A stretch of 64,000 nt of DNA, taken from Nitrososphaeria archaeon. GTDB lineage: Archaea > Thermoproteota > Nitrososphaeria > JACIWG01. This document shows positions 99-53,345 of the stretch, in pieces (positions within the stretch are counted from its first letter, which is position 1; each line of letters opens with the position of its first letter). A program made the position numbers and the translations under genes. The notes under the pieces are model-generated. The model saw only the letters and a program-made list of their open reading frames with translations, was not told the DNA's origin and did not search any database. The DNA is taken from contig JAOAKB010000003.1 of assembly GCA_026413865.1 (NCBI GenBank), positions 32,480 to 96,479 on the forward strand. The letters are read 5' to 3'.

Positions 99-779
99 AT
101 GGTCTCCATAATAGTTGACTCTAGAGAATCAAAATCCAAAATACCTAATCTGTTAAAATCTATGAATATAGACATTATTTTTAAATTCTTAGAAGTAGGT
201 GATTATATAATTAATCCTGAAACCGCTGTAGAAAGGAAATCAGTTAAGGACTTTGTCTCTTCACTATTTGATGGTCGTTTATTTAATCAAATAGAACAAT
301 TATCTTCCTCTTACACGAATGCTTTTCTTATAATAGAAGGAAATTATAATGAAGTAGAATCCTATATGAAGAATCCTAAGGTAGTACAATGTGCCATTGC
401 CTCTCTTCTTATAAACTATAAAATAAAGCTAATTAACTCATATTCTGAAGACGAAACAGCCTTGTTCTTATCTTGTCTATTAAATACTACTCCTAGTAAA
501 AGGGGTGAATACTTTATTAAACACGCTAAGAAAAAGGATTTTCTTGGGCAACAGATATATTTAATTTCTTCTCTTCCAGGTATTGGCTATAAAACTGCTG
601 TGAATCTTTTAAAACATTTTGGCTCCCCCAAAAATATTTTTCTTGCATCAGTTAAAGAACTTTCTAAGGTTCCTGGAATGGGATTAAAAAGGGCTCGTAG
701 GATAAGATTACTTTTAGATACTAATGTAAAATTATATGAGCAGTTTTTTAAAAATCGAGCAAATAACCTTTTTATCTAA
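99..779 (+). CDS. xpf: short XPF/ERCC4-type structure-specific nuclease (nuclease domain + HhH2, no helicase domain)
   Basis: GDY...ERK ERCC4 motif (VGDYIINPETAVERKSVKDF). C-terminal helix-hairpin-helix pair (LPGIGYKTAVNLL...VPGMGLKRA). 226 aa is the short crenarchaeal/thaumarchaeal form. In-frame TGA lies immediately upstream of the ATG. Confidence 0.6.
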   Translation: MVSIIVDSRESKSKIPNLLKSMNIDIIFKFLEVGDYIINPETAVERKSVKDFVSSLFDGRLFNQIEQLSSSYTNAFLIIEGNYNEVESYMKNPKVVQCAIASLLINYKIKLINSYSEDETALFLSCLLNTTPSKRGEYFIKHAKKKDFLGQQIYLISSLPGIGYKTAVNLLKHFGSPKNIFLASVKELSKVPGMGLKRARRIRLLLDTNVKLYEQFFKNRANNLFI

Positions 780-799
780 TATATTGTTAACCTAAAAAT

Positions 800-1402
800 A
801 TGAGCAGTAACGTACAAAGTATTAAGGAACGTGCTATACTTTTATCTGAGCTTGTAAAAGAAAATTTATCTCAAGTAAATGAAGAAGAATTAAGAATTTT
901 TGTTGAAATGTTAAAATCGCATAAAAGTAGCAAAATTCTAATAATGGGCGCTGGACGAAGTGGTCTTGTTGGGCGTGCTTTTGCAATGCGTCTACTTCAT
1001 TTAGGCTTTAATGCTTATGTTTTAGGTGATACTATTGTTCCATCAATTTCTAAAGAAGACCTTGTTATAGCAATTTCCGGTTCAGGTTCAACAAAGCTTA
1101 TAGTTACGGCTGCAGAAGCGGCAAAGCAAGTAGGTGCAAAAATTATATCAATAACTTCCTATGCTTCTTCTCCTTTAGGTAAACTTTCCAATCATATCGT
1201 ACTTTTAAAAGGACGAATTGAAGTTTCTCCTAGAGATTATTTTGCTAGACAAATATTAGGCCTTCATGAACCTCTCGCTCCACTAGGAACCCTTTTTGAG
1301 GATAGTGCATTATTTTTGCTGGATTCAATAATAGCCACACTTATTGCTGAATTTCATGTAACAGAATCAGATATGAAAGAAAGGCATGCTAATATTGAAT
1401 AA
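800..1402 (+). CDS. SIS-domain sugar-phosphate isomerase, 6-phospho-3-hexuloisomerase-like
   Basis: About 200 aa single SIS domain ([20 protein letters not shown]...AISGSGST), as in archaeal PHI/HxlB. Confidence 0.5.
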
Positions 1403-1439
1403 AAATAAATCAAATTAGTTAAAAACAAGATCATTTTAC

Positions 1440-1448
1440 TTTATATAA
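1440..1448 (+). promoter_or_regulatory. TATA-like box upstream of EF-2 exon 1
   Basis: TTTATATAA about 66-74 nt upstream of the ATG at 1514. No experimental support. Confidence 0.25.
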
Positions 1449-1513
1449 TTATCTTACATAGTTTTTCCAAAATCTTTTAAAAGGGTTTTTCTAGTGGTTT
1501 AGTGTGGTTCAAT

Positions 1514-3738
1514 ATGCCCAGGTATAAAACTACCGCAGAAGCATTAAAAATCATAGGCAACAAGGACCAGATTCGAAAGGTTTAGAGTAAAAATCCCTAA
1601 ACCCGAATAATCTGGGTGTTGTTGCCCATGTTGATCATGGAAAAACTACAATGAGTGATAGCTTGCTTGCTGCTTGTGGTATGCTTAGTCCTGCTCTTGC
1701 TGGTCAAGCTCTTGCCCTAGATTATATGGATCTTGAACAACAACGACAAATGACGATTAAAGCAGCAAATGTCACACTCTATTATGAATACGAAAATGTT
1801 CCATACGTTATAAATCTAATAGACACTCCAGGGCACATTGACTTCACTGGTAGAGTGACAAGAAGTTTACGTGCAATTGATGGTGCTGTTGTAGTTTGTG
1901 ATGCTGTTGAAGGTATAATGACACAAACCGAAACAGTAACCCGTCAGGCATTAGAAGAAAGGGTTCGTCCTGTTTTATATATAAATAAAATTGATAGGCT
2001 AATTAAGGAATTGAAACTTACTCCTGATAAGATGCAAGCTTGGCTTGCAAATATAGTTAATGAATTCAATAATCTAATAGATATTTATGCTGAACCTGAA
2101 TTTAAATCTAAGTGGAAAGTAAGTATACAAGATAGTAGTGTTGCATTTGGTTCAGCAAAGGATCGCTGGGGTTTCAATTTTATGATTGCTCAAAAGAAAG
2201 GAGTACGCTTTAGTGACATATATAAGGCATATGAAACTGGAGACGTGAAAACGTTAGCTGAAAACATACCATTACATGATGCTATTCTCTCAATGGTGAT
2301 AAGGCATCATCCTCCTCCTCATGTTGCGCAAAAATATCGTATTCCAAAAATATGGAAAGGTGACCTAAACTCTGAGGTCGGTCAAGCTCTTTTGAATTGT
2401 GATGAAAAAGGACCTACCGTTATGATGGTCACAAATGTTGTGGTTGACCCACAGGCTGGTGTAGTTGCTGTCGGTAGACTCTTTTCTGGCACAGTACACG
2501 ATGGAGACATACTTTATTTGCATAATGCAAAAACGCATGCTCGTGTACAATCAGTAAGTATGTTTATGGGGCCATTTAGGGAAATTGTTGGTGTTCTTAC
2601 AGCAGGAAATATTCCTGCTTTATTGGGCTTAGATGCTGCAAGAGCAGGTGAAACGTTATCGTCAATAAAGGATATCGTTCCATTTGAACAGATACGTTAT
2701 GTTTCAGAACCTGTAGTAACAATTGCAATAGAACCTAAATATCCCCGAGATCTGCCTAAACTTATTGAAACATTAAGGCGATTATCAATTGAGGATCCTA
2801 ATCTTGTAATCAAAATTAATGAGGAAACTGGTGAAATGCTAATGTCTGGTATGGGTGTATTGCATTTAGAAATAGCCACGACACTTATTACTCAAACTGG
2901 TTTGGAGATAGTGACTACACCACCACTTATAAACTATCGTGAGACTATAAGAGCGTCCGCTGGACCGGTTATGGCCAAGTCTCCAAATAAGCATAATCGT
3001 ATATTTATGCGTGTAGAACCTTTAACACCTGAAGTTATTGAATTAATACGAAATAATACTATTAATGAACAACTTGATAGAAAAACTATAGCAAAAATAT
3101 TGAGAGATCATGGATGGGATGCTGATGAAGCAAGGAATGTGGTTGCTGTTGATCCTAGAGGTAATCTATTTGTTGACGCTACAAAAGGTGTTCAATTTAT
3201 GCAGGAATCAATTGACTCAATAAGGGTTGGCTTTTTTGATGTAATGGAGAACGGGCCTTTAGCCCAAGAACCATGTAGGGGCGTCAAAGTTGTTCTACAT
3301 CATGCAGAATTTCACGAAGACCCTGCTCACAGAACTTATGCTCAGCTTTTGCCAGCCTCTAGACGTGCAATTTTAGGCGCCATGCTTCTAGCAAATCCAA
3401 CTTTACTAGAACCTGTGTTGGGTATAGAAATAAAAGCAAATAGTGATCTAATTGGCGCTGTTGCTGGAGTAATTTCTGCTAGGAGAGGAAAAATGTTAAA
3501 TGTTGAACAGAAGGGTGTCCTTACAATAATAGAAGGTGTAATACCTGCGGCAGAGACATTTGATTTAAGTGAAGCCATGAGGGGTGCAACTGCAGGCAAA
3601 GCTATGTGGAACACGCACTTTAAAGAATGGAGCCCAGTTCCCTCAAACATCCTTCCACAGCTTGTTGCATCTATTAGAAAGAGAAAAGGCTTAAACGAAA
3701 CCCCGCCTTCGCCAGAAGAATTTATAGACAAAGAATAA
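1514..3738 (+). CDS. fusA: translation elongation factor 2 (aEF-2), interrupted by a 32-nt BHB-type intron (exon 1 1514..1577, exon 2 1610..3738)
   Basis: Frame-2 ORF from ATG 1514 encodes MPRYKTTAEALKIIGNKDQIR, the conserved crenarchaeal-type aEF-2 N-terminus, then hits a stop at 1583. The G1 P-loop (N)[13 protein letters not shown] is encoded in frame 1 from 1609, with no start codon between the frame-1 stop at 1594 and the motif. The called ORF start (MSDSLL at 1651) lies downstream of the P-loop. Splicing out 1578..1609 yields [26 protein letters not shown]..., colinear with archaeal EF-2. The remaining 695 aa are a full-length EF-2. Confidence 0.8.
1578..1609 (+). other. predicted bulge-helix-bulge (hBHBh') intron within the EF-2 coding sequence
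   Basis: H1 1567-1571 CCAGA pairs 1611-1615 TCTGG. 3-nt bulge TAA at 1608-1610. Central 4-bp helix 1572-1575 TTCG pairs 1604-1607 CGAA. 3-nt bulge AAA at 1576-1578. H3 1579-1585 GGTTTAG pairs 1597-1603 CTAAACC, with an 11-nt loop. Cleavage after the 2nd nt of each bulge removes 32 nt and restores the frame. Confidence 0.6.
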
Positions 3739-3743
3739 GGTTC

Positions 3744-4037
3744 CTAAATATATCCTTTCCTATAATCTTCTTTTTCAACTTTTTCTAATGTTATAAAAAA
3801 ATCTTTGAGTACACGGGTAAGCTTATTGTCCTCAAGACTTATAATCCTTATTTTACCAAACCTTTTTTGTCTAATTATTCCTTCATTTTCTAATTCAAAA
3901 AGATACCTTTCCACAAACTTATATGATATTCTAGTCTTTCTGATCAAAGCTGAAATATTTATTTCATCTTCTTCTAAAAGAATTTTTAAAATTTTAAATT
4001 TACTCTTGCTATTAAAAAAGGTTAAACTCTCATTCAT
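3744..4037 (-). CDS. small winged-helix (ArsR/TrmB-like) DNA-binding protein, translationally coupled to orc1/cdc6
   Basis: 97 aa. Helix-turn-helix pattern INISALIRKTRISYKFVERYLFELENEGIIRQKRFGK. Its start overlaps the orc1 stop by 4 nt (ATGA overlap). Confidence 0.45.
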   Translation of the reverse strand: MNESLTFFNSKSKFKILKILLEEDEINISALIRKTRISYKFVERYLFELENEGIIRQKRFGKIRIISLEDNKLTRVLKDFFITLEKVEKEDYRKGYI

Positions 4038-5200
4038 AATTCTAATCTCTCTTTTATTTCATTATAGAGTTGTTCAGCTGGAATATTTAATAAGCTAATT
4101 AAAGTTGTTCTTCCCCTAGGTTCTGTACTTGTTACTGTTGCACTTATAATCTCTTTTTGACTTAAATTTTTTATTTTTAACCAAAACTGGGTATGTTTTA
4201 AAGCCTCTTTCCCAAATTTTTTACACATATTCTCATATTCTTGTTCTAAAATCTTTAGAGTAACATAACTATCTAATTGTTCTTTTAAGAGTTTAGTTAA
4301 TGCTAACAAAATTATTTTCTCATGGATATCTAAATAATTTAATTCTTCTTTTCTTATCTGAGGAGGTAATTGTAGTCTTGCTTCTCTAACATGTTCTGGT
4401 CTAACTTTTCTTTCCCCTCTGAATTCTGCAATTCTTCCTGAAAGTTGGAGGAGTTCTATAGCATATCTTGCATCTCCATATTTTGATGCAAGCTTAGAAA
4501 TTAATTCTATAGTTTCATTTTCTACTGTGTCTTCTTCAAAGGCTATTATAACACGGTCATAAACTATATCCTTAAGTTGTGATTCATTGTATGATTCAAG
4601 TTTAATTATATTCTTTTGAATGGAACTTAATATACTTTGGTCTGCTTTATCTAAATAAGAAAAAGATTTACTCACAATAATTGAAGATAGTATCTGATTT
4701 TCTGTTCCCATTTCTCTAATTCTTGTTATTATATATAATGGTTCTATTCCCTCATGAGAAATAAGGGCGTCGAATTCGTCAAAAACTGCTATCACATGTA
4801 CTTTTTCTTCATTTAATTTTAATATAAAATATTGTACAATTTCGTCTAAAGAGAATCCTCTAGTTGGGAACGAGTGGCCTATAGTAGAAAGAATACTATT
4901 TAATATACTTCCAAACACCTTATTAACTCTACAATTTGTGTAAAAGGTCTTTAATCTTATATCATAGAAACTATATTGTTCAGTCACATGTTGAAGAAAT
5001 TTTTTAGAAATAAGAGTTTTTCCACTTCCTACTGCTCCTACTATAAAGACTTGTTGACTATTCCTTTTAGGATCTTGCAGTACTGTCTTAAAATATCTTC
5101 TTAATTCATTTAATTCCCTCTCTCTATGTGGTATTCTTTTAGGAATATACTCTGGAGAAAGTTTATTTTCATCTTTAAATATTCGATATTCTTCTATCAT
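4034..5200 (-). CDS. orc1: Orc1/Cdc6 replication initiator (AAA+ ATPase with C-terminal winged helix)
   Basis: Walker A GAVGSGKT, Walker B VIAVFDEFD, typical 388 aa Orc1/Cdc6 layout. Confidence 0.85.
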   Translation of the reverse strand: MIEEYRIFKDENKLSPEYIPKRIPHRERELNELRRYFKTVLQDPKRNSQQVFIVGAVGSGKTLISKKFLQHVTEQYSFYDIRLKTFYTNCRVNKVFGSILNSILSTIGHSFPTRGFSLDEIVQYFILKLNEEKVHVIAVFDEFDALISHEGIEPLYIITRIREMGTENQILSSIIVSKSFSYLDKADQSILSSIQKNIIKLESYNESQLKDIVYDRVIIAFEEDTVENETIELISKLASKYGDARYAIELLQLSGRIAEFRGERKVRPEHVREARLQLPPQIRKEELNYLDIHEKIILLALTKLLKEQLDSYVTLKILEQEYENMCKKFGKEALKHTQFWLKIKNLSQKEIISATVTSTEPRGRTTLISLLNIPAEQLYNEIKERLEL

Positions 5201-10238: not shown

Positions 10239-10568
10239 TTATTGCATAATATAGAACGCGTAACTTTCATCTTTTGCTAGACATTCTTCACAAACACATT
10301 TTTCTGAAACCTTATAATAATCACAGCTTAAACTGTACTCACAACTCCTACAATCTACATTTTTTCCGCAAATTCCACATTCTTTGTAAAGGATTATCTT
10401 ATCATTTAAGACGTTTTCTAAAAATTCAATTAAAAGTTTTTTATTTGTTTCATAATTTATCATCATGCCCTTACTTTTATCATACTTTACTCCTAAACTC
10501 ATTAATGTTTTAAAATCATCAACTGTCAGTCTAGGCAATCTAAACCATTTTCCTTCAACAATTTCCAT
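10239..10568 (-). CDS. small cysteine-rich (zinc-ribbon-like) protein, translationally coupled to the RFC large subunit
   Basis: 109 aa. C-terminal cluster CGICGKNVDCRSCEYSLSCDYYKVSEKCVCEEC (8 Cys). Its ATG shares one nucleotide with the RFC-L stop (TAATG). Confidence 0.4.
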   Translation of the reverse strand: MEIVEGKWFRLPRLTVDDFKTLMSLGVKYDKSKGMMINYETNKKLLIEFLENVLNDKIILYKECGICGKNVDCRSCEYSLSCDYYKVSEKCVCEECLAKDESYAFYIMQ

Positions 10569-11770
10569 TATAATTTCACCCTCTTTTGTATATATGCAAG
10601 AAAATTTTCTCCAAAACCTACATATTTTAAATATTCTAATGTCTTATCAGGTTTCTCTTTAACTAACGAAATTAAACATGGCAAATAGTATAGTGTAAAC
10701 TCTCCAATAGATGTATGATACTTTTGATTCACTCTTTCCTTTACTTCTTTAAATATCTTGTATTCTGTCCAATATTTTAGTTTTAATTCCCATAGAGGCT
10801 CTTCCTCACAATATCTAAATCCTTTACGAATGTCTGTGTCAAAAAGCTTTTCAACAAAATACATATCATACCAGCTAGCCATTCTCCACTCTTGTGTCTG
10901 GGTTATTCTATTTCTAAATAGGTCGATATCAGCTATTGCCCTTAATGCCTTTCTCCTAATATGTTTATCAAGGTTTGAAGCTAAAATAGAATAAAATGCT
11001 ATCATTAACTTTTCGTTCACATCAGCATCCATTTTAGAAAATTTTTTAAAAGCTTCGTCTTTCTCTTTTTCAGAAATTAAAGCCATAATCGCGTCAAATT
11101 TTGATATAGCCTCATCTTTCATAAAATCAGTTTCTTCCATAAGATATGGTGTGTCTATCATCGCCTGAAGCATATTTAACGCATTGCGGACATCACCATT
11201 ACTCTTTTTAGCAATATTATAAAGAATTTTTTTGTCGATGTTTCTATTCTCTTTTTTACATATATGCTTTAGGTATATCTCAATAAGTCTTAATGGTACC
11301 TTTTGAAATCTAATTACTATTACCCTTCTAGAAAGTTTTAGGACATTATCGTTGGTTTCATCATTTGCTGTGAGCACAATTGGAAGAGGTGGCTTATCAA
11401 TAAGTCCATTAATGTATTCTAGGCCCCCATAATCTTCTCTACTATATAAGCCATCGATTTCATCAAATAAAACCATCCTTTTTTCATTAAGTAAATTTGC
11501 AGCATAAAGGCTACTTCCTAATCTTTTATTAAGTGCATCCCTGGTTCTTATATCACTAGCATTCAATTCTATAATATAGTAACCTAAGCGTTTTGCAACT
11601 GCGTATACTGTCGTGTTTTTGCCTATTCCTGGAGGCCCTACTAAAAGTACTGCCTTATCCCCTTGTTTCCATTTTTTCAGCCATTCAAAAAACTCTTTTC
11701 TAGCCATATCATTTCCAATTATCATGTTAAATTCAATACTCCTATATTTTTCCGCCCAAGGTAAGCTCAA
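10568..11770 (-). CDS. rfcL: replication factor C large subunit
   Basis: N-terminal PWAEKYR box, Walker A GPPGIGKNT, Walker B LFDEID, 400 aa. Confidence 0.75.
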   Translation of the reverse strand: MSLPWAEKYRSIEFNMIIGNDMARKEFFEWLKKWKQGDKAVLLVGPPGIGKNTTVYAVAKRLGYYIIELNASDIRTRDALNKRLGSSLYAANLLNEKRMVLFDEIDGLYSREDYGGLEYINGLIDKPPLPIVLTANDETNDNVLKLSRRVIVIRFQKVPLRLIEIYLKHICKKENRNIDKKILYNIAKKSNGDVRNALNMLQAMIDTPYLMEETDFMKDEAISKFDAIMALISEKEKDEAFKKFSKMDADVNEKLMIAFYSILASNLDKHIRRKALRAIADIDLFRNRITQTQEWRMASWYDMYFVEKLFDTDIRKGFRYCEEEPLWELKLKYWTEYKIFKEVKERVNQKYHTSIGEFTLYYLPCLISLVKEKPDKTLEYLKYVGFGENFLAYIQKRVKL

Positions 11771-12662
11771 CTATTATCACCCACACACTTTCTATAGTAA
11801 ATGATAAAAATCCAATAAGCATTCCATTTAACGCTATTCTTTTGACACGTAAAGCATTTTCCCTAGAATTATTCTTTAAGATAGAGTTTACAAGATAAAT
11901 AAATATAATATCGGGTACCATAACAGATAAGAGATAAATCTCTCCCATATGCTTAAAAATGTATGGTCCCAAAGTGCAAACTATTGCTAAAATAAAAAAT
12001 ACTGAACCTATTTTTGCTGCTTTTTCTGCACCAAATTTTATTGCAACTGATTGTACACCCCTTATCTTATCACCTTCTATATCTGATATTGTTTTTATCA
12101 CCTCTCTTCCTGTTACTGCAAAAAAGGATACAGTAGAAAACCAGCATACGATAGGACTTAAAAGTGTTGGATTCACAATAAAGTCCTGTAATCCATTATA
12201 TGCCAATATAACATTTCCATAAATATATGGTATAATGGTTGAAACCGCTACTGTTATATTTCCAATTATTCCATGTTTTTTTAAGTCAAAATTATAGAGC
12301 CATGAAATAAAAGCAAAAAGTATAGCTATTAGTAAACCTAAAATTGAAGTAAAATATGCAAATATAAGTCCTGTAAAAAGTAATATAATGCTATATGCCC
12401 AAGCATTTTTTACTGTAATATAACCTTTAGCTAATGGTCTATCCATCCTATTGATTATATCTACCTCAACATCATAAATGTCATTTACTACCATAGAATA
12501 GGATGAAATGAAGAATCCCGTTAAAAAGCCATATATTGTTTTTATTGAAAGAATCTGTCTTGGGTCAGTCAAAATTATTCCTATTATGACTGCCAACCCA
12601 ATCATGATACTGTTTTTAGGTCTAACTATTGTAATATAATGTTTTAGACTACTTTTTTTCAT
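11742..12662 (-). CDS. UbiA-family prenyltransferase, digeranylgeranylglyceryl phosphate synthase-like
   Basis: Polytopic membrane protein with NDIYDVEVDIINRMDRPLAKG Asp-rich motif. Confidence 0.6.
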   Translation of the reverse strand: MKKSSLKHYITIVRPKNSIMIGLAVIIGIILTDPRQILSIKTIYGFLTGFFISSYSMVVNDIYDVEVDIINRMDRPLAKGYITVKNAWAYSIILLFTGLIFAYFTSILGLLIAILFAFISWLYNFDLKKHGIIGNITVAVSTIIPYIYGNVILAYNGLQDFIVNPTLLSPIVCWFSTVSFFAVTGREVIKTISDIEGDKIRGVQSVAIKFGAEKAAKIGSVFFILAIVCTLGPYIFKHMGEIYLLSVMVPDIIFIYLVNSILKNNSRENALRVKRIALNGMLIGFLSFTIESVWVIIVELTLGGKI

Positions 12663-13197
12663 AAAAGGCCGCCTCAGAAACTTGATAATATATAGCTTCT
12701 CCCCTTCTATCTAATACTGCTATAATCATCCCTTCCCTTTTATTTTTTGTAATGTTCTCAAAAATTTTCTCAAACTCAATTTCATATCCTTCATTTAGTA
12801 CAAAAATAGCATACTTTACAGACCTAACTTTATAATCATCTTTATTATAAATGTAAAAATCGATTCCATCTTCTAAACTTTCCTTAACTATAAAACCCCT
12901 GTTTTTTAAATCCCTATAAACTAGGTAACGGGAGAGTATATTCTTATCCTTTCTATAAAATGTTTTCATCAATTCATTAAAACTTATACTCTTATTATTA
13001 TGTAAAACCTCTATTTTGTTAATCTCAAGCAAGTATAATCCCTCATATTTTGACAGGATTAATCTATGTCCATCTATTTCGCCAAAACCACTCTGGTACA
13101 CTTCTTGGATTCTCCCATTACATTCTACAATAATGTTTTCCCCATCCAATTTTCCAATAAATTTCATTTTCTTTGCTTCATCTTTTTCGCTTGTCAT
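12649..13197 (-). CDS. endA: tRNA-splicing endonuclease catalytic subunit (EndA)
   Basis: Hallmark RYLVYRDLKNRGFIVKESLEDGIDFYIY and C-terminal AVLDRRGEAIYYQV. The ORF track extends it to 13284, which would leave no promoter space before the divergent gene at 13286. The start is therefore trimmed to Met at 13197 (MTSEK); Met at 13167 (MKFIGK) is an alternative. Confidence 0.65.
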   Translation of the reverse strand: MTSEKDEAKKMKFIGKLDGENIIVECNGRIQEVYQSGFGEIDGHRLILSKYEGLYLLEINKIEVLHNNKSISFNELMKTFYRKDKNILSRYLVYRDLKNRGFIVKESLEDGIDFYIYNKDDYKVRSVKYAIFVLNEGYEIEFEKIFENITKNKREGMIIAVLDRRGEAIYYQVSEAAFYEKK

Positions 13198-24115: not shown

Positions 24116-24163
24116 GGCATCAACAAATTTAAAAACCTAAGCTATTATAGTTTTGTGTAAAGT

Positions 24164-28435: not shown

Positions 28436-30478
28436 TTGCTTGAATCTGTATCTGATTCAAAGATTAAAGATCTCTTCTTAGATTTTATTAAGGGCTGGTT
28501 AGACGATTATAAACAGCCAAAATATAGAATTCAATTAAATAATATAATTCAAAAAGGTGGAAACTCGCTTATTATAGATTATTCTGATCTCTCACGCTAT
28601 AATAGCGATCTTGCAGCTATGGCGACAAAAGACCCGAGATATTTAGAACTTTTTTCTAAAGCTGCATTAGATTTTTTAAAAGAAGAGGATCCAGAATACG
28701 CTAGAAAGGTTGAAAAGTTTTTCATAGTTAGGATAAGGAATCTTCCAGAAAAGTACCCTCTTAGAAAACTGGATGTGCACCTTTTAGGCAACTTAGTCGC
28801 TGTAACAGGTATAGTTGTAAGAGTTTCTGAAATAAAGCCCTATATAATTGAAGCTGCATGGGTTTGCCCAAATAATCATGTTACATCAATGCCACAGAGG
28901 GAACGTACTTTAAAAAAACCCTTAAAATGTAGAGAATGTGATGAAAAAGACATTTTTAAACTTGATGAACTAAAAAGTGCTTACGTAAATTTCCAGCTTT
29001 TAAGAATTCAAGAATTGCCGGAAGAACTCCCTCCCGGACAACTTCCTAGACAGTTAGAAATAAAATTGTATGGAGATATAGTTGATATAGCCCGACCTGG
29101 AGATAGAGTGACTGTCACAGGTATCCTTAGAGCTGAAGAAGAATATGGTGCAAGGGGAGGCCGCTCACGTACATTCAACGCATTTTTAGAAGGAAATTAT
29201 GTTGAAGTTCTAGGAAAAGGCCCTCAAGATATAATAATTGAAAAAGCTGACGAAATAAGGTTCAGAGAACTGGCTAAACGTCCTGACTGGATGAAAACAC
29301 TAATTAGCTCTTTTGCTCCATCAATATATGGGCATGACCTTCTAAAGGAAGCTATCTTACTCCTAATAGTTGGTGCTCCACAAGTTCCTTTGCCTGATGG
29401 AACTACCCTAAGAGGCGACATAAATATACTTATTGTTGGTGATCCAGGAACAGCAAAAAGTGAACTTTTAAAATACGCTGCCCGTTTAGCGCCTAGAGGT
29501 CTCTACACTTCTGGTAAAGGTACAACTGCAGCTGGCTTAACAGCTGCAGTCGTTAGAGAAAAAAGTGGTATGCTGATGCTTGAAGCAGGTGCTGTGGTCT
29601 TGGCTGATCAAGGTGTATGTGCAATAGACGAATTTGATAAAATGAGCAATACAGACAGGCAAGCTCTTCATGAAGCAATGGAACAGCAGACTGTATCTGT
29701 TGCAAAAGGAGGAATTGTGGTTACCTTGAATGCAAGAACTTCAATATTAGCCGCTGCTAATCCTCTGCTTGGAAAGTACGATCCATACAAAAATTTGACT
29801 GAAAATATTAATCTACCTTCACCTTTATTAACAAGATTTGACTTAATTTCCATAATAAGGGATGTTCCAGAGAGGTCTGCGGACGAACAGATTGCATCAC
29901 ATATAATGGCTCTTAGACGCTCACGTACTTTTGTGCAAAAGCCTCCACTTGACATTGATTTTCTAAGAAAATATCTTGTATATTGTAAAAATCTAACTCC
30001 ATCGATAACACCTGAAGCTGAAAAAATGTTGATTGACTTTTATCTTCAAATGCGCCTCCAGTCTGATACACAAGGCATTCCTGTTACACCTAGACAACTA
30101 GAATCGTTAATACGTCTAGCAATGGCGAGAGCAAGACTATTACTTAAAGATAAGGTTACTGAAGATGATGCAGCTGAAGCTATTACATTAACTAAGCATA
30201 TGCTTTACACTGTAGCAGTAGACAAAAAGACTGGGAAAATAGATATGGGTACAATAACTGGAATGCCAGTAAGTGAGAGAAGTAAGCTAGAGATCATTTT
30301 TCAAAAATATAAGGAATTAGCTGGCCCGTCAAATGAGCCTGTAGAATTAAATACATTAATAAAAGCCATTGTTGCAACTGGAAAATTCAATGAAGTAGAA
30401 GCCAAAACGTATTTTTCACAGCTAGAGAGTAAAGGTGTATTTTACATGGTAAAACCTGGCTACTACAAAAGGGCATAA
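28436..30478 (+). CDS. mcm: minichromosome maintenance replicative helicase MCM
   Basis: C4 zinc finger CPNNH...CRECDE, Walker A GDPGTAKS, Walker B CAIDEFDKM. 680 aa, no intein. TTG start directly after the gins stop. Confidence 0.9.
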   Translation: MLESVSDSKIKDLFLDFIKGWLDDYKQPKYRIQLNNIIQKGGNSLIIDYSDLSRYNSDLAAMATKDPRYLELFSKAALDFLKEEDPEYARKVEKFFIVRIRNLPEKYPLRKLDVHLLGNLVAVTGIVVRVSEIKPYIIEAAWVCPNNHVTSMPQRERTLKKPLKCRECDEKDIFKLDELKSAYVNFQLLRIQELPEELPPGQLPRQLEIKLYGDIVDIARPGDRVTVTGILRAEEEYGARGGRSRTFNAFLEGNYVEVLGKGPQDIIIEKADEIRFRELAKRPDWMKTLISSFAPSIYGHDLLKEAILLLIVGAPQVPLPDGTTLRGDINILIVGDPGTAKSELLKYAARLAPRGLYTSGKGTTAAGLTAAVVREKSGMLMLEAGAVVLADQGVCAIDEFDKMSNTDRQALHEAMEQQTVSVAKGGIVVTLNARTSILAAANPLLGKYDPYKNLTENINLPSPLLTRFDLISIIRDVPERSADEQIASHIMALRRSRTFVQKPPLDIDFLRKYLVYCKNLTPSITPEAEKMLIDFYLQMRLQSDTQGIPVTPRQLESLIRLAMARARLLLKDKVTEDDAAEAITLTKHMLYTVAVDKKTGKIDMGTITGMPVSERSKLEIIFQKYKELAGPSNEPVELNTLIKAIVATGKFNEVEAKTYFSQLESKGVFYMVKPGYYKRA

Positions 30479-30480
30479 TC

Positions 30481-32643
30481 ATGAATGTTGATTCGCTACC
30501 ATTACCTGAGCAAGTAAAAATCCTATTAAAAAATTTAGGCTATCATACACTATATCCTCCACAGGAGGAAGCAGTTAAAAAAGGGGTTCTGAATGGAAAA
30601 AATGTTCTTTTAACCACTCCTACAGCAAGTGGCAAGACCCTTATTGCTTTAATGTGCGCTGCAAAAGCTGTACTTGAAAATAAAAAGGTAATATACCTTA
30701 CACCATTAAAGGCTCTTGCGAATGAAAAATATGAAGAATTTAAGTCACTCTCAATTTTATCAAAAACAGATGGGTCTAACCCGACTATTGCAATCTCAAC
30801 AGGAGACTATGACGTTAGAGATGACTACTTAAAAGAAAAAGATGTTCTAATACTAACTAATGAAAAATTTGATTCAATGATAAGACATGATCCTAGTTGG
30901 GTAGAAAGGATAGGGCTAGTAATATTTGATGAAATCCATTTACTTAATGACGATGATAGAGGTCCCGTTATTGAAATATTAATATCACATTTTCTCTCTC
31001 ATTCTATAAAGCCTCAGATCATTGCCTTAAGTGCAACTGTTTCAAACTATAAAGATATTGCCTCTTGGATTGGTGCAGAAACAGTTAATATTTCGTGGCG
31101 TCCAGTTAAATTGATTGAAGGTGTTTATCAAAATGGTCAAATATTTTTTTACGACGGTCAAAAGTTCGAAACATTAAGAAGTAACTACGGTCCAGCGATT
31201 GATGTTGCGTACACAATGTTAAAAGAAGGTGGCCAAGTATTAATCTTTTCCGACAACAGAAAAAATGCAGTTTCACTTGCAGAAAAGGCAACAGTTGTCT
31301 CATCAAAGTTTTTAAGTGTTTTAGAAGCTGAAAAGCTTAAAGAATTTTATGAAAAAATAATAGCCTCAGAAGAGTTAACTGGGATAGGGCAAAGGCTTGC
31401 TAACTGTGTATTAAAAGGCTCAGCATTCCACCACGCTGGGCTCTCTCATTCACATAGAACATTAATTGAAGAATCATTTAAGGAAGGGTATATCAAAATA
31501 TTATGTGCAACTCCAACATTAGCGGCTGGTGTTAATCTTCCTGCGAGAACAGTAGTAATAAACAGTCTTGCTCGTTATCATAGTGAATGTGGTCAAAGTG
31601 AAGATATAAGTGTTCTTGAATATAAGCAACTTTGTGGAAGGGCTGGTCGTCCGAAATATGATAATGTGGGCTATGCAATTACTGTATTAAGGTCAGGAGA
31701 TCCTAAAACATTTTTTGAGCATTATGTTAAAGGTTCACCTGAACCAATATACTCGAAACTCATCAATACTGAAACATTAAGGAATCATGTTCTTGCAACA
31801 ATAGTTAGATTTCCAGGCTTGACTGAAAAGGAATTGTACAATTTTTTTTCGAACACTCTACTTGGTTACCAGAGGCGCCCTCAGTTTGTTTTATCAAAAA
31901 TTAAATCATGTCTATCGTATCTTAAACTAAATGATTTGATAGAGGAAGAGGGTGAACGATATATTTCTACTGAATTCGGTAAAAATATCTCATTCCTTTA
32001 TATTTCTACTTCAACTGGAATCCATTATAAAACAATTTTCGAAGAATATAAAAATATTAAGAACAAAAATATAAACGACGAAGATCTCATACTTTTATCG
32101 GCTGTTTCCTCTGGGGATTTTCAACCAAAATTTTATCTTAGACATTCTGATTACTCAGAATTTAAGTCATTTATAGAAAATAATTTAATGTCAATCTTTA
32201 ACATATTTGCTAATCTAGACTTTAAATGCTTCGAATATGTGGGTAGAAGTTTTCTTTCATTAAAAAGTTGGATAAATGAGGAAACTGAAAACGAAATATA
32301 TGAAAAGTTTTCAATCGAACCGGGTGACCTTTATCGTCAGGTAGAATCGGCTCATTGGTTAGTGCACGCTTTCACAAAATTATCTAATTTATTTGGTATT
32401 AGAAGCCTTCAATCTGTATCTAGCTCGCTTGAAGAACGTTTACGTTATGGTGTTAAGAAAGAACTTCTAGAACTTACAAAGCTTGAAGGTATTGGGCGTG
32501 TAAGAGCTCGAATACTATTTTTTAATGGTTATAAGACAATAGACGACCTAAAGAAAGCAAAAGAACAAGATCTTGCAAAAATTCCAAAACTAGGTCCAAT
32601 TATAGCTAAGAAGATAAAGGAACAACTCAAATATTTTCCATAA
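30481..32643 (+). CDS. hel308: Hel308/Hjm Ski2-like DNA helicase
   Basis: Walker A TTPTASGKT, DEIH box (VIFDEIHLL). 720 aa. Starts 2 nt after the mcm stop. Confidence 0.8.
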   Translation: MNVDSLPLPEQVKILLKNLGYHTLYPPQEEAVKKGVLNGKNVLLTTPTASGKTLIALMCAAKAVLENKKVIYLTPLKALANEKYEEFKSLSILSKTDGSNPTIAISTGDYDVRDDYLKEKDVLILTNEKFDSMIRHDPSWVERIGLVIFDEIHLLNDDDRGPVIEILISHFLSHSIKPQIIALSATVSNYKDIASWIGAETVNISWRPVKLIEGVYQNGQIFFYDGQKFETLRSNYGPAIDVAYTMLKEGGQVLIFSDNRKNAVSLAEKATVVSSKFLSVLEAEKLKEFYEKIIASEELTGIGQRLANCVLKGSAFHHAGLSHSHRTLIEESFKEGYIKILCATPTLAAGVNLPARTVVINSLARYHSECGQSEDISVLEYKQLCGRAGRPKYDNVGYAITVLRSGDPKTFFEHYVKGSPEPIYSKLINTETLRNHVLATIVRFPGLTEKELYNFFSNTLLGYQRRPQFVLSKIKSCLSYLKLNDLIEEEGERYISTEFGKNISFLYISTSTGIHYKTIFEEYKNIKNKNINDEDLILLSAVSSGDFQPKFYLRHSDYSEFKSFIENNLMSIFNIFANLDFKCFEYVGRSFLSLKSWINEETENEIYEKFSIEPGDLYRQVESAHWLVHAFTKLSNLFGIRSLQSVSSSLEERLRYGVKKELLELTKLEGIGRVRARILFFNGYKTIDDLKKAKEQDLAKIPKLGPIIAKKIKEQLKYFP

Positions 32644-44237: not shown

Positions 44238-46097
44238 TTATGTTACCTTATAATCTGTATTTACGGTCTTATCGTCTGGCTGTTTTCCTTGCTCACTTTT
44301 TTGCTGCTTAGCATATTCTGATGCTGCTTGCTGGTATATTATTGTTCCTACTTCCTGTAGTACTTTTCTAAGCTCCTCACGCTTCTGCTTTATCTTTTCT
44401 ATTTCTTTGCCTGAAAGTGCTTCACGTAATTCTGAAACGGCTTTATCAATTTGTTCTTTCTGCTGCTGTGTAAGCTTGTCTCCAAGATCTTTTTTAGTCT
44501 TTTCAGAAGTGTATATTAGTGCTTCTGCATCATTTCTAAGCTCAGCCTCCTCTTTTTTCTTTTTATCTAGTTCAGCGTACTGTTCCGCCTCTTTTATCAT
44601 CTTCTCCTTTTCTTCTTGTGAAAGTTTTGTTGCTGCTGTTATTGTTATCTTTGCCTCTTTTCCTGTTCCCAGGTCTTTTGCAGTAACATGAAGTATTCCA
44701 TTTGCGTCTATATCGAATGTGACTTCTATCTGAGGCACACCTCTTGGTGCTGGAGGTATTCCAGTCAAATGAAACATTCCTAGAGAAATGTTGTCCGCTG
44801 CCATTGCTCTCTCACCTTGTAAAATATGTATTGTTACAGCAGTCTGGAAATCTTCGGCGGTAGTAAATATCTGGCTTCTTCTAGTAGGTATTGGTGTGTT
44901 CCTTTCAATAATTTTAGTGAATATTCCACCTAATGTTTCGACACCCAATGATAATGGTGTAACATCGATTAGAAGTATGTCTTTAACTTCTCCCGTTAAA
45001 ACTGCTCCTTGTATTGCTGCCCCTATTGCAACACATTCCATTGGGTCCACTCCTCTTTCTGGAGATTTTCCTATAATTTTTTCAACAAACCTTTGCACCA
45101 AAGGCATTCTTGTTGTTCCACCAATTAGAATCACTTTATCTATATCCTGAGGTTTAAGTTTAGCATCCTCTATAGCCCTCATAATAGTGTTTCTTGTCCT
45201 CTCTACTATCGGTTCAGCAAGCTCCTCCAGTTTTGCCCTCGTTATTGTCATATGAAGATGTTTTGGCCCTGAAGAATCCACGTATATGAATGGTAGGTCT
45301 ATGTCTGTCTGTAAGAGTGTTGAAAGTTCTATCTTCGCTTTCTCAGCCGCCTCCTTTAGTCTGGCCATAGCCATCTTGTCTCCTCTTAAATCTATTCCAG
45401 TCTGTTTCTTGAATTCTTCAATAATATATGTCATGAGTGCTTGGTCTATGTCTGCTCCACCAGTTTGTGTGTCACCGCTAGTTGAAAGAACCTGGAATAC
45501 TCCTTTACCAAAGTCCATTATTGTAACATCATGTGTCCCTCCTCCAAAACTGAATACTAGAATCTTCATTTCTTTTTCAAGTTTATCTATTCCGTAAGCA
45601 AGGCATGCTGCTGTCGGCTCATTTATTATTCTTAGAACCTCGAATCCAGCAATTTCTGCAGCATCTTTGGTAGCCTGTCTCTGGTTATCGTTAAAGTGTG
45701 CTGGAACAGTTATAACACATTTTTTTATCGGGACTCCAAGGTATGCTTCTGCATCCCTTTTTATCTTCTGTAAGATGAATGCTGAAATCTGCTGGGGTGT
45801 ATACTCTTTTCCAAAAATGTTAACCTTATAGTTGGTGCCCATTTTTCTTTTTATTTCAAATACTGTTCCCTCAGGGTTTATTGTCGCTTGTCTTTTTGCA
45901 GGCTCTCCTACAAGTAGTTGTCCATCTTTTGTAAAGGCTACCACTGATGGAAACATTTTGCCTGCAATTGTAGGTCCCTCCGCACTTGGTATGACAATTG
46001 CTTTACCATTTTCCCATATTGCTGCGGCAGAATTTGTAGTACCTAAATCTATTCCAAGAACCTTTTCACGAACTTGAGTTCCACTCATTTTAATCAC
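44238..46097 (-). CDS. dnaK: chaperone DnaK (Hsp70)
   Basis: Hsp70 signatures ([17 protein letters not shown]). 619 aa. Confidence 0.95.
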
Positions 46098-53250: not shown

Positions 53251-53345
53251 TGGGCCCGGTGGGATTTGAACCCACGGCTGACCGGTTTCTCAAGATCACT
53301 TTACTTTATGAGCCGGTCACTCTGACCTAGCTGAGTTACGGGCCC
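53251..53345 (-). tRNA. elongator tRNA-Met(CAT) with a 20-nt intron at the canonical 37/38 position
   Basis: Reverse complement: acceptor GGGCCCG/CGGGCCC, D-stem ACTC/GAGT, anticodon stem ACCGG/CCGGT, loop CTCATA then a 20-nt insert (plus-strand coordinates 53287..53306) then A, T-arm GTGGG-TTCAAAT-CCCAC, discriminator A. Confidence 0.7.

Follow-up and report, generated by a model that had tools for sequence, protein, structure and literature searches.

Pre-mRNA introns in the cbf5 genes of Crenarchaeota (Desulfurococcales and Sulfolobales) were reportedly described by Watanabe in 2002 and by Yoshinari in 2006. In the eukaryotic HAC1 and XBP1 mRNAs, Ire1 cleaves the transcript and the exons are then joined by tRNA ligase or RtcB, an unconventional kind of splicing. 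The latter is mentioned in PMC13149111, and the cbf5 introns of Crenarchaeota are the subject of Yokobori 2009 (PMC2738675). cbf5 is the sole confirmed archaeal pre-mRNA intron cited in PMC2738675 and PMC6379350, and cbf5 alone also appears in the reference list of a 2025 paper (PMC12397907), in agreement with the view of the initial annotation that bulge-helix-bulge (BHB) introns of protein-coding genes are known essentially only for cbf5. Archaeal tRNA introns span 11–175 nt, and the splicing endonuclease EndA cleaves between residues 2 and 3 of the bulge (PMC2738675). A search of open-access papers and bioRxiv found no earlier report of a BHB intron in elongation factor 2 (EF-2), and a report elsewhere is possible.

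The stretch of DNA analysed here (the window, 64,000 nt) comes from an archaeon related to ammonia oxidisers. Its EF-2 gene very probably carries a true archaeal BHB intron inside the coding sequence (Table 1). The reading frame that starts at ATG 1514 opens with MPRYKTTAEALKIIGNKDQIR and runs, in the window sequence, into AAG GTT TAG; translation of an unspliced mRNA ends at this TAG, which had been recognised initially, after 23 residues. The segment containing the P-loop is read from 1609 in a frame different from that of the N-terminus. That frame is closed by a TAA at 1588–1590, not at 1594 as first proposed, and is open only from 1591. The P-loop indeed has no initiation codon upstream, the earliest start in its frame being the ATG at 1651, which in the ORF list gives a 695-aa ORF devoid of the P-loop. 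When the 32 nt are removed in silico, a 730-aa EF-2 that includes the P-loop is obtained and the conserved DQIR/NLGVV junction is regained, as had been anticipated for cleavage at the BHB. Gene content was judged from this single 64,000-nt window, and the genome may contain another intact copy of EF-2 outside it.

Table 1. Coordinates of the EF-2 intron, its structural elements and related features in the window
Feature	Position	Strand	Evidence or remark
EF-2 exon 1, codons 1–21 (MPRYKTTAEALKIIGNKDQIR) and base 1 of codon 22	1514..1577	+	Sequence, ORFs, in silico splicing
Outer helix h, 5′ strand CCAGA, exonic, pairs with 1611–1615	1567..1571	+	Base-by-base check, alignment
Central 4-bp helix H, 5′ strand TTCG, exonic, pairs with 1604–1607	1572..1575	+	Invariant in 65/65
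5′ bulge AAA, inferred cut after 1577	1576..1578	+	AA[A/T] in 65/65
Putative BHB intron, 32 nt, AGGTTTAGAGTAAAAATCCCTAAACCCGAATA	1578..1609	+	Relatives place the cut after bulge nucleotide 2
Inner hairpin, h′ 1579–1585 with 1597–1603 (GGTTTAG/CTAAACC), loop 1586–1596	1579..1603	+	
TAG stop of the exon-1 frame, within the intron	1583..1585	+	Sequence and ORF list
Central helix H, 3′ strand CGAA, intronic	1604..1607	+	Invariant in 65/65
3′ bulge TAA, inferred cut after 1609	1608..1610	+	T[A/G/T]A across relatives
EF-2 exon 2, remainder of codon 22 to stop	1610..3738	+	ORFs, in silico splicing; Pfam domains of homologues
Outer helix h, 3′ strand TCTGG, exonic, pairs with 1567–1571	1611..1615	+	Base-by-base check, alignment
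P-loop AHVDHGKTT, without its own start codon, in exon 2	1624–1650	+	
EndA, tRNA-splicing endonuclease, 182 aa, presumed cleaving enzyme	12649..13197	-	PF02778 E = 3e-13, PF01974 E = 1e-11
tRNA-Met(CAU), 20-nt intron at canonical 37/38, further EndA substrate	53251..53345	-	Rfam tRNA match, 95 nt

The insert of the window conforms to a strict hBHBh′ motif, starting 54 nt past the EF-2 AUG, in which a 5-bp helix h, a 3-nt bulge, a 4-bp helix H, a 3-nt bulge and a 7-bp helix h′ follow one another; this 5-3-4-3-7 geometry, already described in the initial annotation, was verified base by base. The two 3-nt bulges lie on opposite strands, 4 bp apart, in the window and in 65/65 relatives. The cuts first placed at 1576/1577 and 1608/1609 predicted the correct spliced mRNA, but the sites themselves are refined here to 1577/1578 and 1609/1610. 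In the window, excision of 1577–1608 or of 1579–1610 would yield an mRNA identical to that left by excision of 1578–1609, the first and the last of these giving one mRNA because of the A runs.

Comparison with related EF-2 loci, which had been suggested as a check, revealed an insert at exactly the codon 21/22 junction in 75 loci, gathered by a genome scan and an independent pattern scan of metagenomes and corresponding to 65 distinct sequences. These loci belong to Nitrososphaeria, Nitrosocaldus and Nitrosomirales among them, or derive from metagenomes. Insert lengths range from 26 to 63 nt, those of Nitrosocaldus from 37 to 63 nt, and leave a remainder of 1, 0 or 2 on division by three in 41, 15 and 9 sequences respectively; every intron with a length divisible by three contains an in-frame stop. 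After in silico splicing, nearly every locus whose contig spans the gene gives an EF-2 ORF of 729–736 aa. The arrangement of helix H and the bulges is invariant (65/65) and, since H never varies, no covariation evidence can come from H itself. It is helix h′ that covaries: double-sided changes amount to 86 cells compared with 32.8 in shuffles, none of the 500 shuffles reaching 86, and 86% of the h′ cells are paired, as against 25–61% when the partners are slid. Compensatory changes are found in the alignment at pairs 16-68 and 17-67 of h′, and the intron interior is in 65/65 sequences a hairpin that h′ closes at the BHB. The outer helix consists in most relatives of 3 bp, a 1-nt bulge and 3 bp, and its pair 5-79 (alignment A1) is G-U, G-C or A-U across sequences.

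The relatives also indicate where the cuts would fall. All 38 intron-less loci have Asn22, and a cut after bulge nucleotide 2 is the sole one that gives Asn22 in all 65 sequences; the middle base of the 3′ bulge (A, G or T) must be intronic because Asn22 would otherwise be lost. In silico, cutting between bulge nucleotides 2 and 3 restores both Asn22 and an EF-2 of about 730 aa. The codons ATT CGA are used in 65/65 intron-bearing loci versus 1/38 intron-less ones, where the choice of Ile-Arg codons is free. Intron-bearing genes use them because helix H forces these codons, and the bias reflects a constraint of RNA structure on synonymous sites. Protein-level constraint is evident on both sides of the insert. 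Summed minor-allele frequencies at codon positions 1, 2 and 3 are 2.32, 1.92 and 6.25 in exon 1 and 0.26, 0.03 and 3.95 in codons 25–35 (65 sequences). Exon 1 is translated, because its variation is biased to third codon positions, and so are codons 25–35, for which the genome offers no start codon, because theirs is almost solely third-position. Both codons 1–21 and codons 22–35 are under clear purifying selection in the 65 sequences. The arrangement is kept across deeply diverged lineages in a neighbour-joining tree that is indicative only, and divergence of the insert keeps pace with that of the host gene. The intron appears to be old: much of the class Nitrososphaeria shares it, and some lineages have lost it.

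Could such a motif arise by chance? The local fold is more stable than expected (z = -3.3 for 63 nt and z = -3.9 for 181 nt). The initial annotation had proposed folding 1560..1620. The structure of lowest free energy (-18.9 kcal/mol) combines a 7-bp helix and a 5x5 internal loop and is not the BHB, whose conformer at -15.4 kcal/mol is 3.5 kcal/mol less stable in the nearest-neighbour model. Minimal BHB motifs of 4+4+4 bp number 38 in the window versus about 24 in shuffles. For BHBs with h of at least 5 bp and h′ of at least 7 bp, about 0.6 are expected per shuffled 64-kb window and the real one has 1; because equally strong motifs arise at this rate, the motif alone is not beyond chance. What does exceed chance is the occurrence of a BHB at a frame break within an invariant junction, together with its conservation and covariation in 65 distinct homologues. 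When the other coding sequences of the window were scanned for repair by BHB excision, EF-2 alone had a strong motif and the rest showed weak helices of 2–3 bp. One such repair candidate, at 24126–24155, sits in a divergent promoter region.

The window encodes EndA together with the EF-2 intron, at the place given by the initial annotation and on the minus strand, with PF02778 and PF01974 matches that both exceed the gathering cut-offs. The intron-containing tRNA-Met(CAU) was missed by ARAGORN and its sequence was read directly. No RtcB was found among the window ORFs of 388–720 aa scanned against Pfam.

Other explanations of the interrupted frame were considered. The bypass of phage T4 gene 60 depends on matched take-off and landing codons that preserve the downstream frame across a fixed gap. 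The EF-2 insert resembles it superficially, being short, having the TAG at 1583 just past the putative take-off region and containing a hairpin, so that a frameshift, a stop readthrough or a 32-nt hop on the unspliced mRNA might be imagined. However, the exon-1 frame is shut at 1583–1585 and the exon-2 frame is open only from 1591, and a simple frameshift cannot work because the open stretches of both frames do not overlap. As for a hop, CGA at 1604–1606 is the one landing codon that matches, and reading on from it is in the wrong frame; the gap is not fixed either. Inserts of 26–63 nt in all modulo-3 classes would need a separate recoding event per lineage, and it is the BHB geometry that is conserved, not the codons at the insert edges. 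No single recoding rule fits the insert lengths while excision fits all of them; recoding is very improbable. A translocase GTPase needs its G1/P-loop. This bears on the idea that the gene is dead or truly split, the 695-aa product from Met36 being real or a relic and the hairpin incidental. All gene callers do assign close relatives 695 aa or another length below 730, but the 695-aa product would lack G1/P-loop, purifying selection acts on codons 1–21 and 22–35 alike, lineages that diverged deeply still share the arrangement and the remaining ORF is intact in nearly every locus whose contig spans the gene. We give this idea very little credence.

Another reading takes the BHB as an EndA site that serves mRNA decay or regulation, with no productive ligation. 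PMC7714728 describes a systematic search for all non-tRNA substrates of the archaeal splicing endonuclease, and ligation of the EF-2 exons is predicted from sequence. Yet an EF-2 containing the P-loop would never be produced without ligation, the cut positions restore the invariant R21-N22 junction in 65/65 sequences, and the exonic codons are constrained for structure and protein alike; cleavage alone is accordingly improbable. That the insert is a sequencing or assembly artefact, or a recently inserted mobile element, has next to no chance of being correct: the 75 independent assemblies that contain it stem from numerous studies and habitats, and the insert evolves at the pace of its host gene, lacks terminal repeats and coding capacity, and corresponds to no known RNA family in Rfam. 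A self-splicing group I or II intron was rejected as well, the insert measuring 32 nt and giving no Rfam match at gathering thresholds. A BHB intron, which the initial annotation had put forward as the simplest explanation, is supported by the 75 instances at the same codon, the BHB core and the covariation of h′.

How do public databases present these genes? Annotations truncate the EF-2 of intron-bearing lineages, commonly to 695 aa. Database searches with the full-length spliced protein, the spliced N-terminal 100 aa and a profile of 31 spliced N-termini found no protein or cDNA of the spliced form from these lineages, an absence from assemblies that is only weakly informative. The profile covered all intron-bearing lineages, and its matches were compared by local BLAST with each of them. 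The clusters of ten truncated representatives had no 730-aa member, and relatives at least 85% identical and the other clusters checked were 695 aa or had other start-shifted lengths. The one junction-spanning fragment, P0176, comes from a genomic contig on which the ORF continues through the intron. No spliced cDNA was found, and splicing is inferred, as are cleavage and ligation in vivo, the identity of the ligase and any circularisation of the intron; circles are the usual form of excised archaeal BHB introns.

The EF-2 intron has much in common with those of cbf5. Both are short, of BHB type, and located in an archaeal protein-coding gene, where they break a codon in a catalytically essential and highly conserved motif; in both the cut is predicted to separate the second from the third bulge residue, a conserved boundary structure encloses a variable interior, the distribution over the phylogeny agrees with a single ancient gain and later losses in individual lineages, and annotators systematically overlook the intron or mis-call the gene (PMC2738675 for cbf5). 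The differences are also clear. The host phylum is Nitrososphaerota (Thaumarchaeota) rather than Crenarchaeota; the interrupted site is Arg21/Asn22 of EF-2, not the catalytic Asp codon of cbf5, and lies outside Desulfurococcales and Sulfolobales; the motif is a strict canonical hBHBh′, whereas those of cbf5 are mostly unconventional or relaxed (PMC2738675); and the start codon is, unlike in cbf5, only 64 nt away from the intron. Experiments have demonstrated splicing for cbf5, whereas for EF-2 it is deduced from sequence. By analogy, the EF-2 intron seems to work as the cbf5 introns do, outside the cbf5 family. With tRNA introns at 37/38, such as that of the tRNA-Met of the window, it shares an identical hBHBh′ geometry with a 4-bp helix between 5′ exon and intron, the same presumed enzymes EndA and RtcB, and a similar size range (26–63 nt versus 11–175 nt). 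Unlike them, it resides in an mRNA without a tRNA body, the exonic halves of its motif also encode Gln-Ile-Arg and Asn-Leu/Phe-Gly, so that RNA and protein constraints overlap, and splicing must take place in competition with ribosomes translating that RNA.

Like HAC1/XBP1, the EF-2 gene would have a short mRNA intron cut out at stem-loop sites by a protein endonuclease, with the exons joined by a tRNA-type ligase, intron removal shifting the reading frame and hence the protein product. HAC1/XBP1 relies on Ire1 and a motif of its own, EF-2 presumably on EndA and the BHB, and the former is a regulated stress switch whereas no regulation is known for the EF-2 intron. Related Nitrososphaeria carry inteins in the EF-2 P-loop (L030, L049, P0054, P0077 and P0266), which interrupt the same few codons of the same gene and whose post-transcriptional removal also restores the motif. 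These elements of about 1.8 kb encode splicing and LAGLIDADG domains and are removed as protein, whereas the BHB intron encodes nothing and would be removed as RNA. L049 carries an intein and the BHB intron together.

A model of the possible processing pathway can be proposed. The pre-mRNA would fold locally into h (exon-exon), a bulge, H (TTCG of exon 1 with CGAA of the intron), a bulge and the hairpin h′. EndA would then cut past the second nucleotide of either bulge, after 1577 and after 1609, and a ligase, presumably of the RtcB type, would link the exons into ...AUU CGA A/AU CUG GGU.... A ribosome starting at AUG 1514 could thereby make the full 730-aa EF-2 with its P-loop, while an unspliced mRNA would give only a 23-residue peptide. 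Because the BHB begins so close to the AUG, splicing and the first ribosome might be in a race. That the intron has been retained as a control point, tying EF-2 synthesis to EndA/RtcB activity and to this race, is a speculative and rather unlikely extension. If true, translation capacity would be coupled to RNA-processing capacity, the persistence of the intron through Nitrososphaeria diversification would be explained, and this would be the first case in Archaea of mRNA splicing used as a regulated switch, comparable to HAC1/XBP1.

EF-2 would represent a second, independent case after cbf5, found in a different phylum and affecting a translation GTPase that is essential and universally conserved. 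In databases the EF-2 of these lineages, including that of the ammonia-oxidising Nitrosocaldus, is truncated or given a wrong start and lacks its correct N-terminus. Phylogenetic marker sets, estimates of completeness and proteomic databases are all affected. The EF-2 case argues for systematic scans of archaeal genomes for BHB-interrupted coding sequences. With a textbook-strict motif and 65 natural variants to study, the EF-2 intron may provide a clean system for mRNA splicing where transcription and translation are coupled, for testing how the same bases satisfy constraints of RNA structure and of protein together, and for intron gain and loss.

On the plus strand from 1514, the EF-2 gene of the window reads ATG CCC AGG ... 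CAG ATT CGA AAG GTT TAG, so that the conserved aEF-2 N-terminus MPRYKTTAEALKIIGNKDQIR is followed by two extra codons and a stop at 1583-1585, and the P-loop segment, read from 1609, uses another frame. The P-loop frame is closed by TAA 1588-1590, not by a stop at 1594 as the initial annotation had it, and its first ATG, GTG or TTG is ATG 1651. In consequence, the sole co-linear EF-2 ORF has 695 aa, begins MSDSLL and lacks the G1 motif. The other elements of that annotation were borne out: N-terminus and P-loop lie in separate frames with a stop at 1583, no initiation codon precedes the P-loop, and deletion of the 32 nt in silico restores a 730-aa EF-2 with the conserved junction and P-loop region unbroken. 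The intervening bases also pair as it described, forming a bulge-helix-bulge (BHB) with an outer exon-exon helix h, a central helix H and an inner intron helix h'.

Elements of the EF-2 BHB and features related to RNA processing in the window
Feature	Coordinates	Strand	Basis
Helix h	CCAGA 1567-1571 with TCTGG 1611-1615	+	Base pairing read from sequence
Helix H	TTCG 1572-1575 with CGAA 1604-1607	+	Base pairing read from sequence
5' bulge AAA; 3' bulge TAA	1576-1578; 1608-1610	+	Sequence
Helix h', loop 11 nt	GGTTTAG 1579-1585 with CTAAACC 1597-1603	+	Base pairing read from sequence
EndA (tRNA-splicing endonuclease)	12649-13197	-	Both tRNA-intron-endonuclease domains above Pfam cut-offs
tRNA-Met(CAU), 95 nt, 20-nt intron at canonical 37/38	53251-53345	-	Rfam and direct sequence reading; missed by ARAGORN

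RNA folding, which the initial annotation had put forward as a check, agreed with it in part: the local fold scores better than its shuffles, with z = -3.3 over 63 nt and z = -3.9 over 181 nt, but the minimum-free-energy structure combines a 7-bp helix and a 5x5 internal loop (-18.9 kcal/mol) and is not the BHB conformer (-15.4 kcal/mol). The BHB fold alone proves nothing, because minimal BHB motifs are common in this window of 33% G+C (38, versus about 24 in shuffles) and a shuffled window yields on average about 0.6 motifs with h of at least 5 bp and h' of at least 7 bp. The evidence for the EF-2 intron is the position of the motif and its mode of evolution. The second-strongest BHB-like motif of the window (13021-13060, plus strand), with an h of 7 bp, an h' of 5 bp and a 25-nt 'intron', overlaps the 5' portion of the EndA ORF in antisense and is probably fortuitous, since chance alone would give about 2.4 motifs of such total strength in each window.

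The spliced EF-2 protein was used to search one genome per species, yielding 74 loci, nearly all from Nitrososphaeria (Thaumarchaeota), of which about 25 gave a match 26-63 nt longer than 2190 nt. A second, independent scan of metagenome contigs with the exact pattern of the conserved boundary bases added 49 loci. The comparison with relatives that the initial annotation had proposed thus gave, including the window, 75 instances representing 65 distinct sequences, and the insert always falls between codons 21 and 22 of EF-2. The introns have lengths of 26, 29-34, 37, 42-50, 53 and 63 nt, equal to 1, 0 and 2 modulo 3 in 41, 15 and 9 sequences, and all introns divisible by 3 carry an in-frame stop. 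After excision in silico, nearly all loci with a long enough contig have an EF-2 ORF of 729-736 aa. The nearest relatives of the window (97-99% protein identity) have introns of 29-31 nt, versus 32, with different loops, indicating that the interior evolves fast while the boundaries are fixed. In longer introns (45-63 nt; EF-2 loci L013, L014, L017, L077, L092 and L121, Nitrosocaldus-type), the loop is enlarged by short AT-rich tandem repeats (GTTAGTTAGTTAGTTA, TTAATTAATTAATTAAT, ATAAATAAATAAAT), a pattern suggestive of microsatellite-type slippage where the loop is free of constraint.

In an alignment of the 65 junction regions (A1), all four pairs of H, the first two of h' and the length of each bulge show no variation; H, being constant, gives no covariation signal. 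The h' pairs that follow do covary, with U-A 28, C-G 23, U-G 10 and A-U 1 in columns 16-68, and U-A 20, G-C 15, A-U 12, G-U 5 and C-G 3 in columns 17-67. Taken across the structure as a whole, pairing extends to 86% of cells, versus 25-61% with partners slid 1-3 columns, and two-sided changes occupy 86 cells versus 32.8 +/- 7.8 in shuffles (0 of 500 reach 86). RNAalifold independently finds the same helices, and each of the 65 interiors folded alone is a hairpin closed by G-C pairs abutting the bulges. Many lineages have one unpaired base in h', 3-4 bp from the bulge (columns 16-20 with 64-68; GGC[C]TAG/CTAGCC, GGCT[T]AG/CTAGCC); the lineage of the window itself has a perfect 7-bp h'. The codons for Ile20-Arg21 are ATT CGA in 65/65 intron-bearing sequences, and ATAAGA, ATTAGG, ATAAGG, ATCAGG or others in distinct intron-less relatives (ATTCGA in 1/38), a fixation that we read as the footprint of H.

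Because of its A runs, the window allows three equivalent cut positions, and the relatives, with bulges 5' AA[A/T] and 3' T[A/G/T]A, discriminate among them. A cut after bulge nucleotide 1 makes codon 22 AAT, GAT or TAT and one after nucleotide 3 makes it AAT or ATT; only a cut after nucleotide 2 gives A|AT, Asn, in 65/65, and none of the 38 intron-less loci departs from Asn22. Together with the published EndA rule of cleavage between bulge residues 2 and 3, applied and cDNA-confirmed for cbf5 (PMC2738675), this sets the predicted intron at 1578-1609. In the 65 spliced 5' regions, summed minor-allele frequencies at codon positions 1/2/3 are 2.32/1.92/6.25 for codons 2-19 of exon 1 and 0.26/0.03/3.95 for codons 25-35. 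As the genome offers the latter no start codon of their own, their third-position bias is hard to explain unless they are joined to the upstream start; this substitution pattern indicates that both exons are translated.

Could EF-2 be made, or dispensed with, in the absence of splicing? An assembly artefact is excluded by 75 independent assemblies. Recoding of the unspliced mRNA, by frameshift or by a hop over the insert, is exceedingly improbable: frameshifting cannot work because the open frames do not overlap, one closing at 1583-1585 and the other opening only at 1591; a gene-60-type hop to the matching CGA 1604-1606 lands in the wrong frame; and each insert length class would need a separate event. 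We give just as little credence to a pseudogene or an EF-2 that is genuinely truncated, given the purifying selection on codons 1-35, the ORFs intact across deep lineages and the need for the P-loop. EndA cleavage that is not followed by ligation is very improbable too, as this gene would then never produce a functional EF-2.

We infer splicing in vivo from the genomic pattern, since a 5.8-billion-cluster collection, searched with three queries and through the membership of ten clusters, held no spliced cDNA and no 730-aa form among relatives or the clusters checked. There, the lengths given for relatives at least 85% identical are 685-702 aa, and members of the ten clusters measure 685-719 aa, apart from fragments and an intein-containing form of 1309 aa; a single junction-spanning fragment proved to be an ORF reading through the intron. 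With lengths short of 730 aa, public annotation of EF-2 is systematically wrong in the intron-bearing lineages. All N-termini are affected (homologues P0001-P0018 and P0074-P0118, and the ten clusters): most calls have 695 aa, start at Met36 and lack the P-loop, and the remainder (685-719 aa) have spurious starts in or near the intron. NCBI, JGI and ENA name these forms 'elongation factor EF-2' or 'GTP-binding protein, partial'.

EndA is encoded where the initial annotation placed it, and the window also carries a tRNA-Met(CAU) whose intron has H = CTCA with TGAG and bulges TAA and AAA. An RtcB-type ligase is assumed from general knowledge to join the exons, as in archaeal tRNA splicing, because the window ORFs scanned against Pfam include no RtcB. 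A TATA-like TTTATATAAT (1440-1449) precedes the EF-2 ATG by 65-74 nt and could plausibly serve as an archaeal promoter, which would leave a 5' UTR of about 40 nt; if used, the BHB would start about 95 nt from the transcript 5' end. The neighbourhood is rich in information-processing genes (99-5200, 10568-11770, 28436-32643, 44238-46097), namely XPF/ERCC4 nuclease, a SIS-domain protein, EF-2, a wHTH protein, Orc1/Cdc6, an RFC-like AAA+ protein, MCM, a Hel308-type helicase, DnaK and HisRS, with eight further tRNA genes in the window; nothing in the immediate neighbours points to a connection with the intron.

In a quick NJ tree of exon-2 proteins, which is only indicative, intron-bearing sequences account for the bulk of one large group of Nitrososphaeria, which includes the window's clade, Nitrosocaldus-labelled lineages and a group with a Nitrosomirales MAG. 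Intron-less sets (L005-L009, L016, L042, L011) are nested among them; Caldarchaeales and a block including a Conexivisphaerales MAG lack the intron. Candidatus Nitrosopelagicus sp. AH-580-D06 (L043:3001-3100), alone among the 38 intron-less loci in having the codon pair needed by the BHB, retains ATT CGA | AAC, which may be the scar of a precise loss. The gain-and-loss history described for cbf5 introns resembles this pattern as drawn from the indicative tree. The EF-2 BHB is strict; that of most cbf5 introns is unconventional or relaxed.

The initial annotation held that BHB introns in protein genes are known essentially only for cbf5, and the literature agrees: reviews and a 2025 structural paper still cite only cbf5 work for archaeal pre-mRNA introns, and Yokobori et al. 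state that pre-mRNA splicing had been confirmed for no other gene (PMC2738675). The full text of 7.7 million open-access papers and bioRxiv yielded no account of EF-2 with a BHB intron; one may have appeared elsewhere. As the mechanism is already known, the EF-2 intron is a case of a known kind, new in its host gene, its phylum and its predicted strict BHB. Nor is it alone at this site. The EF-2 of Nitrososphaeria MAG KM4338-22 (L049, JBMFNX010000002.1, 1050-3001), about 95% identical to that of the window, has a 31-nt BHB intron and, 12 codons later within the P-loop, an intein (…AHVDHGK|CVSED…VHN|); another locus (L030:~1140-3001) has the intein and lacks the intron, and database homologues of 1256-1309 aa (P0054, P0077, P0266) contain Pfam domains of intein or LAGLIDADG type. 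Two kinds of intervening element thus target the same few codons of EF-2.
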